DNA of 64,000 nucleotides from a bacterium (GTDB lineage: Bacteria > Patescibacteriota > Minisyncoccia > Phycocordibacterales > DATDWN01). Below, in pieces: positions 1,489-56,586 of the stretch (positions are counted from its first letter, which is position 1; every line of letters begins with the position of its first letter). The position numbers and the translations under genes were made by a program. The notes beneath the pieces were generated by a model that had not been told where the DNA came from, ran no database searches, and was given only the letters and a program-made list of their open reading frames with translations. Location: contig JBAXLH010000003.1 in the NCBI GenBank assembly GCA_037134875.1, positions 9,644-73,643 of the forward strand, written 5' to 3'.

Positions 1489-1887
1489 AGTGTAAATTAT
1501 ATCACAAAAAAACCGCTCAAAATCGGCTTGACATACTATTTCTTTTATGATAGACTTCCCGTACTAAGTGGTGGCATTGAAAACAGAGAGTCATGTGCGC
1601 TTTTTGAGGCTCCAAAATATAAATCTCTAAGCAACTGGCCCTTACGGGCTACGAGTTTTTCTGCGAGGACATTCTGGGTAATACCTTGTGTATTATTCTG
1701 GAATCATCCTTGGCGAAATACTTAGCTTTTGGTTTGATTATTGAAAGTGTTGCTTAGAGATTTATGTTTTGGATTTTTTTGTACCCAAATCAGTCTCTCT
1801 CTTTTTTATTATCCACAATACACATTCTTTATCAAGTGACTTTTGCACTATAACCCGAGCAAAAATTAAATCAACTTTACAAATCAG

Positions 1888-1925: not shown

Positions 1926-3638
1926 TTATTCTTTTTCAACATCTACCACTCGCTCGAGCTCTTCGAGAGTCGTCATTCCTTGGAGAATTTTCAAAATACC
2001 GTCTTGTTTGAGGTCCAAAATGTTTTGCGATAGTGATGCTTTTTTTATATCTCGCTCACTTGGGTTGTCTTTCACTACTTTTTCAATATTTTCATCCATC
2101 AAAATCGCCTCGTAAATGCCGATTCGTCCTTTGTAGCCGGTCATATTGCATTTTTCGCATCCAACGTTTTGCCAGATATGCGTCGTGTCTATTCCGTCGA
2201 GGTATGTTTTGTCAGCGACACTCGCGATAACTTTGTCGATGAGAGTTTTGTTGTCGCCCTCTAGAGTGATTTGTTTTTTACAATTGGTGCAAAGTTTTCT
2301 CACGAGTCGCTGAGCCATTGCAATATTGAGAGCGGACGAAAGAATTTTTGGATCAACACCGAGATCAACGAGACGTGGAAATGTGCCTGCAGCTGTGTTG
2401 GTGTGCAGGGTAGAGAAGACAAGGTGACCGGTCAGAGCCGAGTTCACGGCAATCTCCGCTGTCTCTTCGTCTCGAATTTCACCCACCATAATAATATCTG
2501 GGTCTTGTCGCAGAGCACTACGCAGTCCTTCGACGAATCCATAATTTTTCTTTTCGTCTGTTTGTGTTTGTACGATGCCGGGCAAATGGTACTCGATCGG
2601 ATTTTCAATCGTAATTATTTTTATATCCGGTGTGTGAATTTTTTTCAGAAACGCGTACAGCGATGTAGTCTTTCCAGAGCCAGTCGGTCCGGTGTTGAGG
2701 AGCATTCCGCTTGGTTTGTTCATTTCGTGCAAAATAATTTTGAGAAGGCGAGGATGAATACCGAGATCCTCGAGTGGCACGGAAATAGCATTTGGATTGA
2801 GTACTCGGAGCACGATCGAGTCGTTGTATGCACCTGGCAAGATAGATGTTCGGATTTCCACTTCGCTGTCGCCAATTTTGATACTAAATCGTCCGTCTTG
2901 TGCACCAGAGACATTGAGCTTGAGGTTTGAGACTAGCTTGAGTCGCGAGAGAAGTAGTTTGTATGTCTCGTTATCAAATTGCAAAATCTCTGTGAGCATA
3001 CCATCGAGTCTGTATCGGAGTCGCACATAATCCTCCTCGGGTTCCATATGAATATCTGATGAGCCTGTGGCCAGCGCACCTGCGAGCGTGATTTCCAAAA
3101 TGCGCGAGATGCGATAACTCTTTTTCATCTGCAATGTTTCGCCAATGAGGTTTTGTACATCGGGAATTGTGTGCACTTTTGAGAGAAACTCGGTGATCTG
3201 TTCGTTGGAGATGTCGAGCGCGCCTGATTTTGTTTCAAATGAATACGACAAGTCTTTGTACCTGTCCCAGACTTTGCCGAGACTTGCGTGTGAGACCATA
3301 AAGACTTCAACTTTGTATCCGCGCTCTTCGAGTTTTTTCAGAGTTTCTTGTGTTTTTGGATTTTGTGGAGAGAGTGCACCGACGGAGACGATCTTGTTGA
3401 CTTCGTTGAAGACGGCGACTTGTGCTTCTCGTGCCTCGAGTTCGGGAATGAGACGGAGTGCATCAATGTTAATCGGTGTGACAGTGAGGTCGAGGTAGGG
3501 GACAGAATATTTTGAAGAGAGCATTTGTGCCAAGTTTTCTTCTTCTTGTTTGCGAAGATCATCAACCCGCTTGTTTTGTTTGTCTTCATCGAATGTGACC
3601 ATACATATATGATAGCATAAAATTTTTTCAGTTCCCAA
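1926..3638 (-). CDS. pilB: Type IV pilus / type II secretion assembly ATPase (PilB/GspE family)
   Basis: Walker A GPTGSGKTT; GspE N-terminal domain; C-terminal tetracysteine CTNC...CEKC zinc motif. Start uncertain: TTG at 3638 in the ORF track, first ATG at 3602. Confidence 0.9.
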   Translation of the reverse strand: MGTEKILCYHICMVTFDEDKQNKRVDDLRKQEEENLAQMLSSKYSVPYLDLTVTPINIDALRLIPELEAREAQVAVFNEVNKIVSVGALSPQNPKTQETLKKLEERGYKVEVFMVSHASLGKVWDRYKDLSYSFETKSGALDISNEQITEFLSKVHTIPDVQNLIGETLQMKKSYRISRILEITLAGALATGSSDIHMEPEEDYVRLRYRLDGMLTEILQFDNETYKLLLSRLKLVSNLKLNVSGAQDGRFSIKIGDSEVEIRTSILPGAYNDSIVLRVLNPNAISVPLEDLGIHPRLLKIILHEMNKPSGMLLNTGPTGSGKTTSLYAFLKKIHTPDIKIITIENPIEYHLPGIVQTQTDEKKNYGFVEGLRSALRQDPDIIMVGEIRDEETAEIAVNSALTGHLVFSTLHTNTAAGTFPRLVDLGVDPKILSSALNIAMAQRLVRKLCTNCKKQITLEGDNKTLIDKVIASVADKTYLDGIDTTHIWQNVGCEKCNMTGYKGRIGIYEAILMDENIEKVVKDNPSERDIKKASLSQNILDLKQDGILKILQGMTTLEELERVVDVEKE

Positions 3639-3778
3639 ACCATTCGCAGACTTTTGGCTCGGATACCAACAATTTTTTCTAGCCGTGAGCGTTTAGTCCT
3701 GTGTAACAAGGACCGACCGCAGGGAGTCCGCGGAAGGCAGAAAAAATTGTGCCGTATCCGACAAAAGGCGAGGACGGT
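3637..3778 (-). ncRNA. Conserved 142-nt structured element, copy 1, immediately upstream of pilB. Candidate cis-regulatory 5' leader; strand tentative.
   Basis: Near-identical blocks shared with 56044..56185 (aaaccattcgcagacttttg; ttttttctagccgtgagcgtttagtcctgtgtaacaaggaccgac; gagtccgcggaaggcagaaaaaa; caaaaggcgaggacggt). They are separated by variable blocks of identical length that are mutually complementary within each copy. Confidence 0.5.
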
Positions 3779-3879
3779 GCGGGAATGAAAAAAAATTTTA
3801 TGTTTTCCTGTGCAATGTCTCAAAAAAATATGCAACGAAAATATTGAGAAAACCTCTGTTTTAATGGGTTTTTTGAGTA

Positions 3880-3908
3880 TTGACAAAATGTGTGTGTTGG
3901 TGTATAAT
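3880..3908 (+). promoter_or_regulatory. Near-consensus sigma70 promoter: TTGACA, 17-nt spacer, TATAAT. An AAGGAGG Shine-Dalgarno sequence follows at 3913..3919.
   Basis: ttgacaaaatgtgtgtgttggtgtataat, then aaggagg 6 nt before the ATG at 3926. Confidence 0.6.
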
Positions 3909-3925
3909 ATACAAGGAGGTGCGCA

Positions 3926-4627
3926 ATGCACAAACTGGTAATTTTCATGGTATTTTCGGTCTTTTTTCTCGGCGGTTGTGCTGAGAAAAAGAAGGCGGGA
4001 ATGAAAACTCCGCCGACGCCGACAACCAAGACGGCGCGGACGAAGTCCGCGCTGGAGATGAAATGCGACTCAGCGCCAACGCCGCGCGAGAAGGCAATCT
4101 GCCTCTCGGCGCAGGCTCGCGAGCTCGAGGGGCTCGCGAGAAAGGCCGACGGCGAGGCTCGGAAGTCCGAGCCGAAGTCGGTCGCGATCGAGCGCAAGAA
4201 GCTCGAGGCGACCGAGAAGCGCCAAGCCCGATCGGAGAAGGCGTTTCGCGACGCCATCATCCGGTCCGGTGTGACGGGTTGTCCCGAAGTTTGGGTCAGC
4301 CCGTCGGCCGTCAGGCCTGCTTACGGTTTCGTCAACGCGCGATACGCGATCGTGAACGGCAATCCCGTTCCGATCGAGATTCGCGAGGATGCTACTGGGC
4401 AGGTGGTTGTCCGGGGCCTGTGCCCGGGCAAAAGTATGACCCTCACCAAGGTCATGCCCGTCTGGCAGGACGGGACACAGTTTCAAGTGTCCTACACTGC
4501 CACCGGCACGATTTCTGGCCGGCCGGCGATCGCTCACTCGCCGACAACGATGTTGTCGGTGTACCAGGCGCAGTACCAGGCAACCACCCTGGTACAGTGG
4601 GACATCCGCCTGCAACTGCTCCAGTAG
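3926..4627 (+). CDS. Putative lipoprotein (signal peptide + LGGC lipobox); the body lies in an anomalously high-GC segment
   Basis: N-terminus MHKLVIFMVFSVFFLGGC. Consensus promoter and Shine-Dalgarno sequence upstream. From about 3990 to 4740 the DNA is GC-rich and ORFs appear in several frames. Function unknown. Confidence 0.5.
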   Translation: MHKLVIFMVFSVFFLGGCAEKKKAGMKTPPTPTTKTARTKSALEMKCDSAPTPREKAICLSAQARELEGLARKADGEARKSEPKSVAIERKKLEATEKRQARSEKAFRDAIIRSGVTGCPEVWVSPSAVRPAYGFVNARYAIVNGNPVPIEIREDATGQVVVRGLCPGKSMTLTKVMPVWQDGTQFQVSYTATGTISGRPAIAHSPTTMLSVYQAQYQATTLVQWDIRLQLLQ

Positions 4628-16385: not shown

Positions 16386-16430
16386 AAATTTAAATGCTGA
16401 ACATTTTAAAATTCTTTGAAAATTCTTTCT

Positions 16431-16522
16431 CCTCCTGTCTCTCGAGGAGTACGAATATTTGCCTGCTGGCAAATTTCTCAAGTCTCGGCTACCCGCCTGC
16501 GAAGCCTCCTCTCGAGACAGGA
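16431..16522. terminator. Long imperfect inverted repeat (ctcctgtctctcgaggag ... ctcctctcgagacaggag) with a nested tttgcc/ggcaaa hairpin, lying between convergent genes. Probable bidirectional terminator or structured element.
   Basis: Inverted repeat of about 18 bp visible in the sequence. Confidence 0.4.
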
Positions 16523-16544
16523 GTCAACGAATTTTCAAATAGTT

Positions 16545-17384
16545 CTAGTACGTCAAACTGTCCACTAGCTTGCCGTTATTGTCGTAGAGAGCAATATTTT
16601 CACGTTTATCTTTCCAGAGATGATCACTTCTGCCGAGATAGACTCGCCATTCGTGTTGGTAAAAATCTTTGTCACTTTTGTGAGTATCTACACACGAACC
16701 ATAATTTATTTTATCTATAATAAATTTTCTACATTCGTAACTATAATTATTTGGTAACAAATCGGTTTGAATTCTGCACGATGGGAATGAATCTATATAA
16801 TCAAAACAGTTATCATTTTCTACACGGCTTGGTATGGAGGAGAGATCCTCGTTTCGCGGAGCGGGGCAGTTGGTCGAGAGATATGGTACGAATGTTTGAA
16901 ATTGCGACATATAGCCGGAGCATTTGTTGGTCTTGAAACTGTATCCGAGAGGAGACGTTCCGGTGATAACATACACAACATCTTGGTCAGTCAAAAGAAT
17001 ATTGTCGGCAGAGTTTATTGAATTGGCAAAATAAAGGTAAGTGCCTTTTGGAATTTCAACTTCAGAACCACTGCTGAGGCTTTTTATTTTCCAACCGGTA
17101 ATCTGTACGGTACTCGTGGCATTTCCGGACATTCGGAGAGTAACATATTCCTGTGCAGGATTTGTTGACCGCGTGACATACTGGAGCGATACCATTCCTT
17201 TGTATGGAGATTTGTTTTTGTCTGCCTCGAGCTGTAATTTTTGTTTGAGTATGTCTGTTTCGGATTGTTGTACTGCCTGTGAAGTTATTACATTGGTTGT
17301 CTGGGGCATATTTTTTACACCACCAAAGAGGGCAATAGCAACTATCCCGAGGAGAATCATAATACCTATTGTGTTTTCTTCCAT
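16545..17384 (-). CDS. Secreted or membrane-anchored protein with a lamin-tail-domain-like segment and Cys-rich C-terminus
   Basis: N-terminal transmembrane helix. The segment YVTLRMSGNATSTVQITGWKIKS...YLYF resembles the LTD fold motif. Eight Cys in the C-terminal half. Confidence 0.4.
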   Translation of the reverse strand: MEENTIGIMILLGIVAIALFGGVKNMPQTTNVITSQAVQQSETDILKQKLQLEADKNKSPYKGMVSLQYVTRSTNPAQEYVTLRMSGNATSTVQITGWKIKSLSSGSEVEIPKGTYLYFANSINSADNILLTDQDVVYVITGTSPLGYSFKTNKCSGYMSQFQTFVPYLSTNCPAPRNEDLSSIPSRVENDNCFDYIDSFPSCRIQTDLLPNNYSYECRKFIIDKINYGSCVDTHKSDKDFYQHEWRVYLGRSDHLWKDKRENIALYDNNGKLVDSLTY

Positions 17385-20636: not shown

Positions 20637-20723
20637 GGAGGAGTGGCAGAGAGGTCGATTGCACCGCTCTTGAAAAGCGGAAGCTGGGTAACTGGCTCGT
20701 GAGTTCGAATCTCACCTCCTCCG
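20637..20723 (+). tRNA. tRNA-Ser (anticodon UGA), class II with long variable arm
   Basis: Acceptor GGAGGAG/CUCCUCC; anticodon loop CUUGAAA; long extra arm; T-arm GUGAG-UUCGAAU-CUCAC. Confidence 0.85.
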
Positions 20724-22298
20724 CATTACGAGATTTTGACTGCACAAACGGTCAAAATCTCTTTGTTTATCGCCATTTTTAACAGGTTCTAACCGTTCTT
20801 TTATCTTACCTAAAGTTTTTGAGACTCTTTTTATTGGAAAGAGTGATTTCTCTATATCAATACTGAGTATTTTGTCTTTTAGGATGAGGTCCGAACCTAA
20901 GGTTGATAAAATAGACCGTCTCGTCTCAATTGTGCCAGTATCAAATTTATATTTTGCACCCTCAATAAAGGTAAGCATTTCATCTGCGGTGTTTAACCAT
21001 CGGTCCACTCTCTTGCTCGTATCTCCGAAAAGATTATCAAGTTGTTTCTTTTCTGCAAGGAATTTTATTTTTCTTTCAGCAAATTCTTCAGCAGATATTT
21101 CTCCACCCGCTCGCATATCAGTCAAACCATCAATCTTTGCGAGACAAGCCTTGTAGGCCTTCTCGTTTGCCTTTATAACGGCATTACGGCCATCAACTTC
21201 CTTTTCATTTTCTTTCTTAAACCACTTCATAGCATAGCTGTGAAATTCTGGTGGAATTTCAATACTTTTAATTTCAGTCGTAATCTGTTTTTTGAGTTCT
21301 TTCTCCTCAATAGACCCTTGCGTACAATTAGGATTTACTCTTTTAGTACAGTGATAGTAGACATACGAGTGAATATTTCCATTTTTCTGCTTTTTTATTT
21401 TAGTCTCTGCCGTAATACTTGCTCCACATTCTCCGCAACGCATCATTCCAGTAAAATCAAATATATGTGTTTTTGGTCTTGGTTTTCCTTTCTTACCAAG
21501 TAAGAATTGAAGCTTGTCATATTCCTCAGCAGTCATCATTGGAGTATGAATAGCATCATACCATTTACCACTTCTGAGAGGATATTCATATCTTCCATAA
21601 TAAAATGGATTTGAGAAAATTCTGTAAACTGTAGCTCGGCTAATTTTTTTGCCACTTGGCATAGTAAAGCTCCATTCATTTTTTGCAATTCTCCATATAT
21701 CTGCAACTGTATAATTACCCGTGAGCATTAAGTCAATCATTTTACGGACCAAAGGAAATCTCTCTTCGTCTACAAGCGGGACCTTATTTCCTTTTTCTGC
21801 ATACTTGTCATTTTTATAGCCTATTGGTGCAGGAGCGGGATACATTCCAAGACTGGCTTTTTTGTGAAGACCCCTTTGCACATCAACACCTTTTTTATCA
21901 TTCTCCATTTTGGCCTGACTGCATTGAAACATAAACATAAATTTATCCAGCGGAGTATTTTTAAATGTTTGTGCTGGCGTAACTATTTCAATGAGTTTTC
22001 CTTTATCTATTAGGTCAATAAGTAAAGCAGAGTCCATAGCATTTCTTGAAAGTCTATCTGCGTGCCAAACAATAACCGCATTGATTTCTCCACTTTCAAT
22101 CATACTCAACATCTGACTGAATTTAGCTCGCTTACCAGAAACCTTTGCTGATTTTGACTCACTAAGAAGATACTCTGGTTTAATTTTTATTCCTAAACTA
22201 TCTGCAATTCTTTTACCCTCATCAATTTGAGAATCAATTGAAAGAACCTGCCTATCCTCAGACTCTGTGGACTTTCTGCAATAATTTCCATATACCAA
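20712..22298 (-). CDS. Large serine recombinase (resolvase catalytic domain + recombinase + zinc-ribbon domains)
   Basis: Catalytic YCRKSTESED...WHADRLSRN. Cys cluster CGECG...CTKRVNPNC. 528 aa. Confidence 0.85.
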   Translation of the reverse strand: MVYGNYCRKSTESEDRQVLSIDSQIDEGKRIADSLGIKIKPEYLLSESKSAKVSGKRAKFSQMLSMIESGEINAVIVWHADRLSRNAMDSALLIDLIDKGKLIEIVTPAQTFKNTPLDKFMFMFQCSQAKMENDKKGVDVQRGLHKKASLGMYPAPAPIGYKNDKYAEKGNKVPLVDEERFPLVRKMIDLMLTGNYTVADIWRIAKNEWSFTMPSGKKISRATVYRIFSNPFYYGRYEYPLRSGKWYDAIHTPMMTAEEYDKLQFLLGKKGKPRPKTHIFDFTGMMRCGECGASITAETKIKKQKNGNIHSYVYYHCTKRVNPNCTQGSIEEKELKKQITTEIKSIEIPPEFHSYAMKWFKKENEKEVDGRNAVIKANEKAYKACLAKIDGLTDMRAGGEISAEEFAERKIKFLAEKKQLDNLFGDTSKRVDRWLNTADEMLTFIEGAKYKFDTGTIETRRSILSTLGSDLILKDKILSIDIEKSLFPIKRVSKTLGKIKERLEPVKNGDKQRDFDRLCSQNLVMRRR

Positions 22299-22522: not shown

Positions 22523-23626
22523 TTAACTTCTTTTGATAATCCCTTCTAAAACAGCCTTCTCCTCGTCTGAAATACCACCATTGTTTCCAGTGTTTTGGTT
22601 CTTAAGGCCTTGCACAATTCTAACCGCATTTTCACTGCTCATACTGCCGTAACCATATGACCCAAAGGTGGTGCCGACATTTTCGTGTCCGAGATTTAGA
22701 CTAATTGCCCGTTTTTCCTCCTCTGTGAGTCTCATTTTGCTTAAAATACCCACTACTGAATGACGGAATGAGTGAGGATTAAAATAAGGCAGGCCAGCAT
22801 TTTTGCATCTTTTTTCAAAAATCTTTCTTGCACAACCATCGTTACTCCAGAAGTTTTTACTTATAAAATCTTTACTGTAACTATTATTTTCTGTACCAAA
22901 CTCATTTAAGGTTGAAGGAAAAATCGGGTCGTCTGGTCCAAACCCTTTTGATTCAAGATACTCATACCATTCAATAAAATATTTTTCTGGACCGTCCCAG
23001 ATAATAGGAAAAAATGTTGATGGTATTCTTTTTGAATTTTTAGTTCTCACTCCATCAGCGGGATTTTGGTCAAATAATCTGTTCTGTTTATCAAAACTTT
23101 TCATTTTTAATGACACGAGTGCCGAAATACGCATACCTGTTGTAAGAGCGAGACAAATAATTGCTCTGTCCCTATTATCTATTTCATTTTTAATTTCAAT
23201 ACTTTCAATTACATTTTTTACATCCTCAAATGAAGGGATTTTTCTTTTTGTACCAGAGGTGGCAATACGAGCTTCTTTTTTTGAAAGACGGAGAAAATCT
23301 ATATCGTTTTTTAATATTTTCCTATAATTTGGTTGATTAGATAACCAATGAAAAAACCTTTTGATACGGCGGAGATAGTTATATTGTGTAGTAAGGGAAA
23401 TTTGGCCAGATTCAGTTTTACTTCCCCTTGATTTTAACCACTCTACAAAAGATACTGCTTTTGTTTTATTGAAAAAGATAAAATCCTCATTTTGTGTGAA
23501 ATTTTGCCATTGTGCTATGGCCTCAGCAAATATATTTATTGAGCTTTCAGCAAAACCCTCTCCACCTTTCAGGTGTTCAAAAAACTCCCTTTTCCTTAGC
23601 TCATTTTGATATATATTTTTTGTCAT
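22523..23626 (-). CDS. Tyrosine-type site-specific integrase
   Basis: C-terminal catalytic motifs NPHSFRHS and LGHENVGTTFGSYGY (HxxR...Y). Confidence 0.8.
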   Translation of the reverse strand: MTKNIYQNELRKREFFEHLKGGEGFAESSINIFAEAIAQWQNFTQNEDFIFFNKTKAVSFVEWLKSRGSKTESGQISLTTQYNYLRRIKRFFHWLSNQPNYRKILKNDIDFLRLSKKEARIATSGTKRKIPSFEDVKNVIESIEIKNEIDNRDRAIICLALTTGMRISALVSLKMKSFDKQNRLFDQNPADGVRTKNSKRIPSTFFPIIWDGPEKYFIEWYEYLESKGFGPDDPIFPSTLNEFGTENNSYSKDFISKNFWSNDGCARKIFEKRCKNAGLPYFNPHSFRHSVVGILSKMRLTEEEKRAISLNLGHENVGTTFGSYGYGSMSSENAVRIVQGLKNQNTGNNGGISDEEKAVLEGIIKRS

Positions 23627-25680: not shown

Positions 25681-25784
25681 ATGCTTTACTTTACTTTACA
25701 GCCGATAAAAATTCAAGTAATATAAAACAGACAACCAAATATGGCCTAACCCTAAGAATTTTCATTTTTAGGTATGGCGAGAAA

Positions 25785-25921
25785 CCCCACCACAGGCGTA
25801 AAGAACTCCTCGTTAGAGTCTTGCCTGTGGTGGGTCATACTGGGAAACTGGTATGGGTGGCTTAAAAACCATCAGCTCTAGCGGGGAGCTTTTTGCAACC
25901 CGCTAGTAAAACCCACCACAG
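25785..25921 (+). promoter_or_regulatory. Structured leader upstream of mod: 12-bp hairpin cccaccacaggc/gcctgtggtggg, a second hairpin ctagcggg/cccgctag, and a third copy of cccaccacag at the start codon
   Basis: Inverted repeats and a triple motif visible in the sequence. Confidence 0.4.
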
Positions 25922-52295: not shown

Positions 52296-52540
52296 CCACT
52301 TCCGTAATTTTGCACCTAAGCAAATTGAGTTTTGTGTTGCGAAAAAAGGCCTTTCGCAGGAGTTTAGAAAATTAGTGAGGTATTCCGAACATAATTTTCT
52401 TGAACGACGAGAAGTTCGCTGGGCTAGCAAGCCCAGACAGATTGCCTTTTGAGGAATACAAAACTCGATTTGCGTATACGGCTAAAATATGCTACTCTAC
52501 CCCCATGGAAAAAGAGAAAAAAACCAATGAAAAGGAGGAT

Positions 52541-53030: not shown

Positions 53031-53474
53031 ATGTACCTAAACAAAGCAATTATAATTGGAAACCTGACAAAGGATCCAGATGTTAAAGCTCTGCCATCCG
53101 GCGTAAAAGTTACTAGTTTTTCTTTGGCGACAAATAGAGTGTGGAAAGACAAAAATGGTGCAAAACAGGAAAGTGTCGACTATCACAATATTGTGGTGTT
53201 CGGCAGACAAGCCGAGATTTGTGGTCAGTATCTCAAAAAGGGCGGTTCAGCTTTGATTGAGGGAAGACTTCAGACACGAAGTTGGGATGATGCTGGTGGT
53301 GTCAAAAAATACCGCACAGAGATTATTGCTGACAGAGTCCAGTTTGGACCTCGCAAGGATGCTCCTGCTGGCGGATACCAGAGTTCTCCAGCTCCAGTAG
53401 AAGAGGACAAGAAAGCGCTTGATACTATTGAGTATCCAGAAGAGGAAATCAACCCAGAAGACATACCGTTCTAA
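53031..53474 (+). CDS. ssb: Single-stranded DNA-binding protein
   Basis: OB fold (NKAIIIGNLTKDPDVKALPSGVKVTSFSLATNRVWKDKNG). Acidic C-terminal tail ending DIPF. Confidence 0.9.
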   Translation: MYLNKAIIIGNLTKDPDVKALPSGVKVTSFSLATNRVWKDKNGAKQESVDYHNIVVFGRQAEICGQYLKKGGSALIEGRLQTRSWDDAGGVKKYRTEIIADRVQFGPRKDAPAGGYQSSPAPVEEDKKALDTIEYPEEEINPEDIPF

Positions 53475-53631
53475 AACTTCCAAATTTGGCGAACTCCTTG
53501 TTTCGAATTTGAAAATGCTCGTCGTCGTATATGTATACGCCTTCTCGCATTTCCAAACTCTCAACATCGGATTTCATCCAAATTGTGAAAGTTTTAGAAA
53601 ATATACAATTACAAAAAATTAAAATAAAATT

Positions 53632-54937: not shown

Positions 54938-56014
54938 TTATTCTTCACTCCCACTCTCCTCATCACCACCTTTGCTTGGTACGACAGATCCGCCATTGTC
55001 GTGGAGTTGCTTGCGGATTTGCTTCATAATATCTTCGGCGATTTTTTTGTTGGCTTTATCTTTCAAAAATTGTCTGGTTGCGTCATATCCTCGGCCGAGC
55101 GCAATATCTCCATATCTGTATGACGAGCCGGATTTCTGGACGATACCCATTTTTTCTCCGAGTGCGATCATTTCGCCTTCGCGAGAAATACCTTCGTTGT
55201 ACATTAGGTCAAATTCTGTTTGCTTGAATGGTGCGGCGACCTTGTTTTTGACTACCTTTACTCGCACACGACCTCCCATAATTTCTTCGCCTTTTTTGAT
55301 CTGGGCGATACGCCTAATATCGAGACGAACAGACGTATAAAATTTGAGTGCCTTTCCTCCAGGAGTTGTTTCTGGGTTACCAAACATCACGCCGATTTGC
55401 ATACGGATTTGGTTTATGAAAATGACAACAGTTTTTGATTTGGCAACAATAGCTGTGAGTTTGCGGAGAGCTTGGGACATCAGGCGGGCTTGCTTGCCGA
55501 CATGGTGTGCGCCCATATCTCCCTCGATTTCATCTTTTGGTGTGAGGGCTGCTACGGAGTCAATGACGATAACATCCATTTTGCCGGAGCGAACGAGGGA
55601 CTCTACGATTTCGAGCGCTTGTTCTCCATTGTCTGGCTGAGAAATGAGAAGCTGATCGATTTTTACTCCGAGTCTCTGTGAATATTCTGGATCCATTGAA
55701 TGTTCGGCGTCAATAAATGCACAAATGCCACCCATTTTTTGAGCCTCCGCTACAATATGCAGTGAGAGGGTAGTCTTGCCCGATGACTCGGGTCCAAAAA
55801 TTTCAATAATTCTACCACGAGGAACACCGCCGACACCGAGCGCCGCATCGAGTCCGATCGAGCCGGTTGGTATAGCATTCACATCTACATGTGGTTTGTC
55901 ACCGAGCATCATGATGGCATCATCGCCAAATTTTGTTTTGATATCTCGCAGAGTATCATCGATGTTGACTCTTCCAACATTTCCTTTTTCTTCCTTTTTT
56001 TCTTTCTTTTTCAT
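54938..56014 (-). CDS. recA: Recombinase RecA
   Basis: Walker [11 protein letters not shown]; [11 protein letters not shown]; L1/L2 loops; [11 protein letters not shown]-terminus. Start taken as MKKKEKK (56014). The ORF track's N-terminal extension to 56116 translates the conserved upstream element. Confidence 0.95.
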
Positions 56015-56043
56015 TTCTTGTTTTTTAAATTTTTTGTTTTCGA

Positions 56044-56185
56044 AAACCATTCGCAGACTTTTGACTGAAATGTTAATACTTTTTTCTAGCCGTGAGCGTT
56101 TAGTCCTGTGTAACAAGGACCGACTGAAAGGAGTCCGCGGAAGGCAGAAAAAAGTATTCTACATTTCACAAAAGGCGAGGACGGT
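56044..56185 (-). ncRNA. Conserved 142-nt structured element, copy 2, immediately upstream of recA. Candidate cis-regulatory 5' leader.
   Basis: Same four conserved blocks as 3637..3778, at identical spacing. The variable blocks tgaaatgt/acatttca pair within this copy. Confidence 0.5.
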
Positions 56186-56232
56186 TTGAGGAAACAAAAA
56201 ATACTAATAAAATAATAATTTAATTAAAAATT

Positions 56233-56586
56233 TTAATATTCCTTTAAAATGAGCTCAAGTTTTTTCTCTGTATACGTCCCAAATTTATCTTTACCATCTA
56301 GTCTTATTATATTATAGCCTGGGGAAAGTAACAATTTCTCGGAAAACTTGCCATCCTTGTCTGTAAATATGCTTTTGCCATTGAGATTCAAAAAAGCGAC
56401 ATTTTTTGCTTTGCCGTTGATTTCTATGAGAGTTTGGCTATATGTGGCGCCATTTTGGGGTGTGTAGACCTGGATAGAAGGCCCTGTAATGAGGTTGTAG
56501 GCTTGGTAAATGGAATAGAGCACAATAATGCCTCCGAGGAGGGAAAGGGAGGTGATCTTTAGAATTGAGGATGCATTTTTATTCAT
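56233..56586 (-). CDS. Hypothetical membrane-anchored protein (N-terminal transmembrane helix, beta-rich ectodomain)
   Basis: ORF only. Confidence 0.4.
   Translation of the reverse strand: MNKNASSILKITSLSLLGGIIVLYSIYQAYNLITGPSIQVYTPQNGATYSQTLIEINGKAKNVAFLNLNGKSIFTDKDGKFSEKLLLSPGYNIIRLDGKDKFGTYTEKKLELILKEY

Follow-up and report, generated by a model that had tools for sequence, protein, structure and literature searches.

In bacteria, repeats 100-200 bp in length fold into long stem-loops and act on mRNA via RNase III or RNase E, and the transcripts of CIR, a repeat of Caulobacter/Brucella, are branched rather than simple hairpins (PMC2229807). In another group of repeats, the REPINs, the two sides of the hairpin often show compensatory changes (PMC3116915). 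A structured element of comparable size occurs twice in a 64,000-nt stretch of DNA from a Patescibacteriota bacterium (contig JBAXLH010000003.1, positions 9,644 to 73,643; referred to here, at its full length, as the window), where one copy lies 5′ of pilB, the gene of a type IV pilus ATPase, and the other 5′ of recA. The original prediction, made from the sequence of the window, took the two copies for a shared structured leader, a riboregulator of a competence and recombination regulon.

Comparison with related genomes leads elsewhere. With a probability of roughly two in three, the element is a small, structured and dispersed intergenic repeat of ~175-195 bp, non-autonomous and resembling a MITE (miniature inverted-repeat transposable element) or a REPIN, that has recently spread in one lineage of the Paceibacteria type (Candidate Phyla Radiation). 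Four things are established: the element is present at multiple loci, orthologous sites in relatives are empty, the copies at two loci are identical, and the sequence forms a hairpin whose changes are compensatory or keep a wobble pair. The pairing of pilB with recA appears coincidental, with copies placed in A/T-rich spacers near gene starts irrespective of the function of the gene.

Structure of the element

The conserved core of copy 1 spans 3634-3781 and that of copy 2 spans 56041-56188, both on the minus strand and co-oriented. An alignment of 3587-3828 with 55994-56235, together with a repeat search of the window, bears out the coordinates and common orientation of the original prediction, and the alignment also agrees with its description of four identical blocks separated by variable blocks of equal length, in which tcggatac is complementary to gtatccga in copy 1, and tgaaatgt to acatttca in copy 2. 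The 142-nt element described there is real; its length was set too short, the hairpin continuing into outer arms that extend to 3611-3807 and 56029-56202. The repeat search returned one 175-nt family (3620-3794 and 56027-56201, 81% identity). Two core words of 18-20 nt each occur exactly twice in the window, against an expectation of 0.01 from shuffles, and covariance-model scores reach 175 bits for copy 1 (3634-3781, minus strand) and 178 bits for copy 2. By inverted-repeat search, the arms of copy 1 are 3611-3628 with 3790-3807, and those of copy 2 are 56029-56048 with 56183-56202. The parts of the two copies are as follows.

About 3611-3807, minus strand: copy 1, the whole hairpin with its A/T-rich outer arms (alignment, direct repeat, inverted repeat, covariance model, fold)
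3682-3738, minus strand: apical three-way-junction domain of copy 1 (pair table, alignment of four loci)
3747-3760, minus strand: variable 5′ stem block of copy 1, pairing with 3660-3672 (pair-table columns 22-35 with 110-122)
3660-3672, minus strand: variable 3′ stem block of copy 1 (pair table)
56027-56202, minus strand: copy 2, full hairpin (alignment, direct repeat, inverted repeat, covariance model, fold)
56089-56145, minus strand: apical three-way-junction domain of copy 2 (pair table, alignment of four loci)

On both strands the overall shape is a single long hairpin with a three-way junction on top. The 148-nt core has a consensus of 52 pairs (RNAalifold), of which 7 are changed on both sides between copies 1 and 2, and none is broken. 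When all three distinct sequences now available are considered, including those from the further loci described below, standard pairs occupy 156 of 156 pair cells and both partners have changed in 8 pairs, a combination reached by 0 of 500 shuffles, and slid registers fall to 35-47% paired. Folding z-scores lie between -4 and -7 on either strand for both copies, with copy 1 folding at -59 kcal/mol (z -6.0) and copy 2 at a z of -7.4. The apical domain is laid out as GCC, a 4x4 internal loop and GCG, followed by two hairpins, and its 57 nt are the same in all copies bar one loop and one C-to-U change. The stem block at 3747-3760 differs from copy 2 at 7 positions, at each of which the partner base has changed too. 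Even the irregularities of the stem are kept in both copy types, a G.G mismatch being replaced by A.A and a bulged C by A, and in a third sequence (L031, below) a C-G pair of the basal helix has newly become U-A and the two outer arms are shorter by a matched 7 nt.

A structured hairpin with pairing preserved by compensatory changes, as originally proposed, is therefore upheld by the 52 pairs, of which 8 show two-sided changes and none is broken. Such changes are also common in mobile hairpin repeats such as REPINs, and this is not decisive for a regulatory RNA: covariation, being shared with these repeats, does not discriminate a leader from a repeat.

The pairs also carry some information on which strand folds. 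Two pairs have changed on one side alone, from U-A to U-G and from C-G to U-G, and in each case pairing survives as a wobble on the strand that is sense to pilB and recA but not on the other; three further G-U pairs are fixed on the sense strand, so that all five wobble positions lie there; on the opposite strand 11 cells would become A.C mismatches, leaving ~93% paired, as derived from the pair table. The wobble pairs favour a fold in gene-sense RNA or gene-sense single-stranded DNA, in line with the original prediction. The preference is weak: a five-to-nil split between the strands would turn up by chance with a two-sided probability of ~1 in 16, and plus-sense and minus-sense folds hardly differ in stability.

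Empty sites in relatives and further copies

Homologues of PilB and RecA place the window in Patescibacteria, among Paceibacteria/Zambryskibacteria-like genomes. Short contigs of ENA, Logan and JGI samples encode PilB and RuvB identical to those of the window; their upstream DNA is identical as well, and such contigs hold no comparative information. Three relatives (L004, L005 and L007) have a PilB that is 79-81% identical and the same gene order (a 233-aa gene, pilB, ruvB), and their spacers upstream of pilB measure 96, 122 and 127 nt, respectively, against 323 nt in the window, the alignment showing a clean gap of ~200 nt at the place of the element. Another group (L012-L015, 82-84% PilB identity) holds a different hairpin upstream of pilB, and the element is missing from this position in 6 distinct relatives.

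The recA locus gives the same picture. In its closest relative there (L016, 92% RecA identity), which has the same FtsK-117aa-recA order, the element is absent and 18 nt separate the upstream stop from the ATG, against a spacer of 218 nt in the window. A relative with 90% RecA identity (L018) has an unrelated 190-nt hairpin upstream of recA, closed by a perfect 32-bp outer stem. Because relatives lack the element at both the pilB and the recA locus, it is best read as a lineage-specific insertion and not as a conserved leader.

A pattern scan of metagenomes, for which the pattern was first verified on the window, returned three true loci (L029, L033 and L031) and three chance matches. L029 and L033 are the same place, and the copy found there matches the recA copy at every position (100% identity), even in the outer stem. 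On one side it has a 217-aa gene and on the other a 125-aa gene, after which comes gyrA; all three genes are on the opposite strand, and the copy is antisense to its surroundings. The copy in L031 is inserted between groES and groEL in the sense orientation and ends ~57 nt before the groEL ATG. The neighbours of the four copies are therefore pilB, recA, groEL and a gene next to gyrA. With one further copy at groES-groEL and one, antisense, in the gyrA neighbourhood, the link to a regulon that the original prediction proposed has largely given way to a repeat unrelated to pilB and recA. The three metagenome contigs come from the sample series in which the RuvB and PilB of the window occur identically. 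Two other contigs end inside the element (L035, positions 1-37, in copy 1; L038, positions 1-127, in copy 2), as is typical of multi-copy repeats.

A covariance model built from the two window copies, as suggested at the outset, recovered the metagenome matches over ~290 kb of related loci and no other copies; two weak matches (L004, E 0.12; L029, E 0.69) belong to other hairpin families. A scan of a genome collection gave only three chance matches, in coding DNA of Balneola, Hyphomicrobium and Henriciella, neither the source genome nor a close relative apparently being among the species representatives. Neither the core 20-mer nor the basal motif matched viral contigs, blastn against phage and plasmid collections gave no match, and the 6 kb of contig past the window hold no new copy. 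The terminal repeats common to the copies are 8-11 bp of A/T only (AAATTTTTTS / SAAAAAATTT), and the adjoining sequence differs by copy type.

Competing explanations

As a dispersed repeat, the element would have spread by transposition or a similar copy mechanism, with its conserved tip, rather than its ends, recognised by a mobilising protein or RNA-binding factor, and the hairpin would form in single-stranded RNA or DNA of the gene-sense strand. The outer and middle segments of the stem drift yet stay complementary, beneath the conserved 57-nt tip. Copies lie inside two probable operons (FtsK-SET-117aa-recA and groES-groEL), where it would be transcribed along with its neighbours and, by analogy with Correia and ERIC repeats, which are known to affect adjacent mRNAs via RNase III or RNase E (PMC2229807), read-through would probably turn the hairpin into an RNase III-type processing or stability element; a stem paired end to end, with 52 pairs in the 148-nt core and more with the outer arms, could serve as the RNase III substrate. 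The element would sense no ligand.

Several observations weigh against this reading. Divergence between the two window copies is uneven, a 45-nt block being unchanged beside an adjoining 8-nt block with 5 changes, and the block pattern, which departs from uniform neutral decay, may point to function or modular exchange. A classical MITE would show the opposite of what is seen here, where conservation peaks at the centre and the ends are short, A/T-only and variable. Three of the four copies have TTA on either side; with A/T palindromic flanks, it is inseparable from an extension of the inverted repeat. Pfam finds no DDE or Y1 transposase among 20 window open reading frames, in which the only recombinases are a serine recombinase and a tyrosine integrase at 20.7-23.6 kb. 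The known total is small, at four loci and three distinct sequences, and L029, L031 and L033 are likely, though not proven, to come from the same genome as the window. Finally, three of the four copies are sense to the downstream gene, which, with the five strand-specific wobbles, leaves room for a selected RNA role.

Such a role could be that of multi-copy small-RNA genes, or of a domesticated repeat, with a three-way junction that binds a protein or target and transcription in the gene-sense direction. An apical domain that is identical among copies, apart from the loop and the single base mentioned above, next to stem blocks diverged at 5 of 8 positions would suit this explanation, as would the retained mismatch and bulge geometry, the two single-sided substitutions and three fixed G-U pairs that fit the gene-sense strand only, and the promoter-like site that a consensus scan places 5′ of each window copy on that strand. 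It is nevertheless unlikely: the element has no conserved promoter or terminator of its own, the site upstream of copy 1 belonging to the remnant of another hairpin family (family B, below), the fold is about as stable on one strand as on the other, the wobble bias has the two-sided chance of ~1 in 16 given above, one copy runs antisense to the genes around it, and relatives do not conserve the element.

Mobility and function could also be combined, in that the three-way-junction core would be a functional RNA module with a mobile hairpin as its vehicle, kept close to stress and DNA-maintenance genes of high expression (pilB, recA, groEL and the gyrA neighbourhood) because it tunes their expression in cis, for example as a protein-bound or temperature-sensitive processing site. 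This is improbable; if true, the regulatory RNAs of Candidate Phyla Radiation genomes would gain a new, 'portable' class.

A functionless DNA palindrome, whose arms are kept symmetric by templated correction (quasipalindrome or template switch) and whose copies arise through recombination or gene conversion, with neither dedicated mobility nor selection on RNA, would account for the symmetric changes in both arms, including the matched 7-nt shortenings in L031, and for two hairpins in relatives (L004 and L018) whose perfect outer stems of 32-33 bp are unrelated in sequence, an outcome unlikely under RNA selection. Templated correction should, however, erase the mismatches, bulges and G.T pairs that persist here at the same positions; the strongly uneven conservation is left unexplained, and insertion at unrelated loci still requires a copy mechanism, all of which makes this account quite improbable.

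The leader proposed originally has to be set beside the two downstream genes and the promoter of pilB. Pfam confirms the gene identities that had been given, a T2SSE/GspE-type ATPase and RecA.

1926-3602, minus strand: pilB/gspE-type ATPase gene, downstream of copy 1 (Pfam T2SSE)
54938-56014, minus strand: recA gene, downstream of copy 2 (Pfam RecA, E 2e-135)
3609-3638, minus strand: promoter-like site for pilB, -35 TTGGGA and extended -10 TGcTATCAT (consensus scan)

The ATG of pilB is at 3602 and that of recA at 56014, with the conserved core ending 29-34 nt, and the outer arm 8-14 nt, from each. TTGGGA sits at the core end of copy 1, and TGcTATCAT ends 6 nt 5′ of the pilB ATG. A TGnTAYNAT -10 box 6-7 nt before the pilB ATG is also present in L004, L005 and L007, all of which are without the element; from the conservation of this box the pilB mRNA is probably leaderless, its promoter presumably lying between the element core and the gene. 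A window scan at both copies found no terminator-like site after either and no hairpin that would sequester a Shine-Dalgarno sequence. In Rfam 15, no family matches the element at the gathering threshold in a search of the full window; with the limit relaxed to E 10 for 3500-3950, the best scores (at most 20 bits, against cut-offs of 43-55) are at chance level, which agrees with the original remark that the element resembles no riboswitch that could be named.

A cis-regulatory, riboswitch-like leader shared by pilB and recA, and coordinating them as a competence/recombination regulon, would thus find both window copies sense to the downstream gene and ending 8-34 nt before its ATG, compensatory pairing with wobbles on the gene-sense strand, a highly conserved apical domain and no match in Rfam, but it is very improbable given that every relative examined lacks the element upstream of pilB and recA, that other copies lie at groES-groEL and antisense beside gyrA, that the conserved extended -10 box of pilB is downstream of the element core, that terminator and Shine-Dalgarno-sequestering hairpin are missing, and that the same genome has several unrelated hairpin insertions in housekeeping operons. 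The shared leader or riboregulator is accordingly given up on four grounds: relatives without the element, copies elsewhere, the downstream position of the pilB -10 box, and the presence in the same genome of several unrelated hairpin insertions of 130-200 nt that its closest relative lacks.

Other identities were also considered and set aside. An integron attC site would have R″/R′ core sites (RYYYAAC ... GTTRRRY) at the hairpin base, where none is present, and the flanking genes are housekeeping genes and not cassettes. The copies are non-identical and structured, unlike the att sites of an island, and their changes are compensatory and not adenine-specific, as those of the template/variable repeat pair of a diversity-generating retroelement would be. 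Signal recognition particle RNA, 6S RNA and known ribozymes give no model match, the junctions being unlike a hammerhead or hairpin core; open reading frames across the copies are not conserved, excluding coding sequence; and a REPIN or REP-RAYT system (repetitive extragenic palindromes with their associated transposase) is not indicated, with no REP-like doublet in the element and no Y1 transposase in the 20 scanned window reading frames.

Some observations concern the same neighbourhood. The region before ruvB has the layout of that before pilB, both with an extended -10 (TGnTAYAAT) 6-7 nt before the ATG (window 3600-3616 for pilB and 1489-1510 for ruvB, minus strand). No Shine-Dalgarno sequence precedes pilB, ruvB or recA, a strong AAGGAGG is found at gene 3926, and leaderless mRNAs seem common in the lineage of the window. 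Between pilB and ruvB, a separate 163-nt element at 1611-1773 (minus strand) is near-invariant across seven distinct relatives, despite a PilB identity of just 79-84%, and has a 25-bp closing stem, 6 compensatory pairs and an upstream promoter-like TTGnnn-17-TATAAT; it has no match in Rfam, where a search of 1480-1935 at E up to 10 gave nothing relevant. It looks like a genuine conserved non-coding RNA candidate, and a better candidate for an RNA linked to pilB and ruvB than the hairpin element.

Other hairpin insertions and known repeats

The element is one of several hairpins in the window and its relatives.

16400-16548, 52318-52475 and 53465-53603: unrelated long intergenic hairpins, z about -6.5 (intergenic fold scan)
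3795-3825, minus strand: remnant of the 5′ arm of a family B hairpin (AGACATTGCACAG..AATTAGAAAAC), which is also promoter-like (TTGAGA-17-TAAAAT)
L012 395-640, L014 1800-1990, L015 1-100, L004 14180-14310 (minus strand) and L029 110-290: family B sites
L018 9746-9936 (190 nt) and L004 14374-14530 (minus strand, 157 nt): hairpins with perfect outer stems of 32-33 bp, the outer stems being of wholly different sequence

The three further window hairpins are 130-175 nt long, and hairpin insertions of the lineage overall are 130-200 nt. The spacer between tatD and rpsF, which holds the hairpin at 52318-52475, is 209 nt in the window against 39 in L016, and that between ssb and rpsR, with the hairpin at 53465-53603, is 157 nt against 38, so both appear to be lineage-specific insertions inside a ribosomal-protein operon. 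Hairpin insertion is therefore general in these genomes and not tied to DNA-uptake genes.

L012-L015 have full family B hairpins upstream of pilB, L004 has one between ruvC and lepA, and L029 has one too; in the window only the 5′ arm is left, beside copy 1, which suggests nested or replacing insertions at a hotspot upstream of pilB. L012 and L014 have identical PilB and differ by a 75-nt insertion in the upstream hairpin (L012 513-587) and by the upstream neighbour gene, a very recent rearrangement of this region. The perfect-stem hairpins of L018 and L004 have a common inner motif, ACTTGTCAATGAGCCC...GGGTCGTTGACAAGACCATGCT, and that of L004 has basal loops (GTCCTCGnCC / GTCTGCGRATG) as in the pilB/recA element. 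Outer stems that are perfect yet unrelated could be the trace of a mechanism by which flanking DNA is copied inverted. In viral contigs the L004/L018 motif matched a conserved coding region only, and GTCCTCG(C), taken as a motif across hairpin families, is not enriched in the window (5 seen against 3 expected). One possibility is that the many unrelated hairpin insertions of 130-200 nt share a single, undescribed, structure-directed mobilisation mechanism.

Elsewhere in the window, a 65-nt repeat with 85% identity (37173-37237 and 37506-37570) follows a tRNA gene in each case, and has an internal hairpin with compensatory changes (CAGATTGGCG/CGCCAATCTG versus CGGACTTGCG/CGCAAGTCCG); an exact 27-nt repeat lies nearby (36953-36979 and 37086-37112). 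A LOOT RNA (Rfam RF03000, 78.8 bits) at 25743-25873 on the plus strand is ~2 kb from the tyrosine integrase (22523-23626), and the large serine recombinase (20712-22298) nearby abuts a tRNA gene (20637-20723); together they are a probable integrated element.

The idea of a riboswitch-like regulator that governs DNA uptake and recombination in the Candidate Phyla Radiation was an attractive lead, and is removed as wrong. What takes its place is a streamlined Paceibacteria genome colonised by several families of hairpin repeat, at or in core operons (recA, groESL, rpsF-ssb-rpsR and pilB-ruvB). Such repeats break metagenome assemblies, can give rise to promoters and mRNA processing sites or shift them, and in comparative screens look like regulatory RNAs with covariation. 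The result is of use as a marker of genome dynamics and as a caution: where two copies are paralogous, compensatory changes between them are not enough to show a regulatory RNA.

Among described systems, riboswitches and other 5′ leaders resemble the element in being structured and near gene starts, with covarying stems and a conserved multi-helix junction, but here the structure is not conserved at orthologues, is not consistently sense, and lacks a terminator or sequestering hairpin and an Rfam match. The palindromic elements of Rickettsia and the CIR repeats are closer, as palindromic repeats of small or streamlined genomes without an identified transposase; Rickettsia palindromic elements are often in frame inside coding genes, whereas all copies here are intergenic, and no sequence or motif is held in common. 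REPINs share the hairpin-forming replicative unit, the conserved blocks split by segments that keep only length and pairing, and the presumed folding as single-stranded DNA or mRNA. They consist of two inverted, short, G+C-rich REPs near a RAYT gene, and no REP-like 16-mer doublet, RAYT or high copy number was found in the present case.

The Correia/NEMIS repeats of Neisseria and the ERIC/IRU repeats of enterobacteria belong to another phylum, have no sequence similarity to the element, and number tens to hundreds of copies against about four here, where the terminal repeats are 8-11 bp of A/T, the apex is branched and conserved, and a TA/TTA duplication is not demonstrable. No account of such repeats for Paceibacteria or the Candidate Phyla Radiation was found in the literature searched. 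The likenesses to Correia/NEMIS and ERIC/IRU comprise the size of 100-200 bp, the imperfect palindrome with its long stem-loop, the intergenic placement, often in operons or just upstream of genes, the presence that varies among relatives, the short terminal inverted repeats, and an element end that can supply a -35-like hexamer, here the TTGGGA by the pilB -10 box. The element adds a new sequence family to a class of repeats already known.

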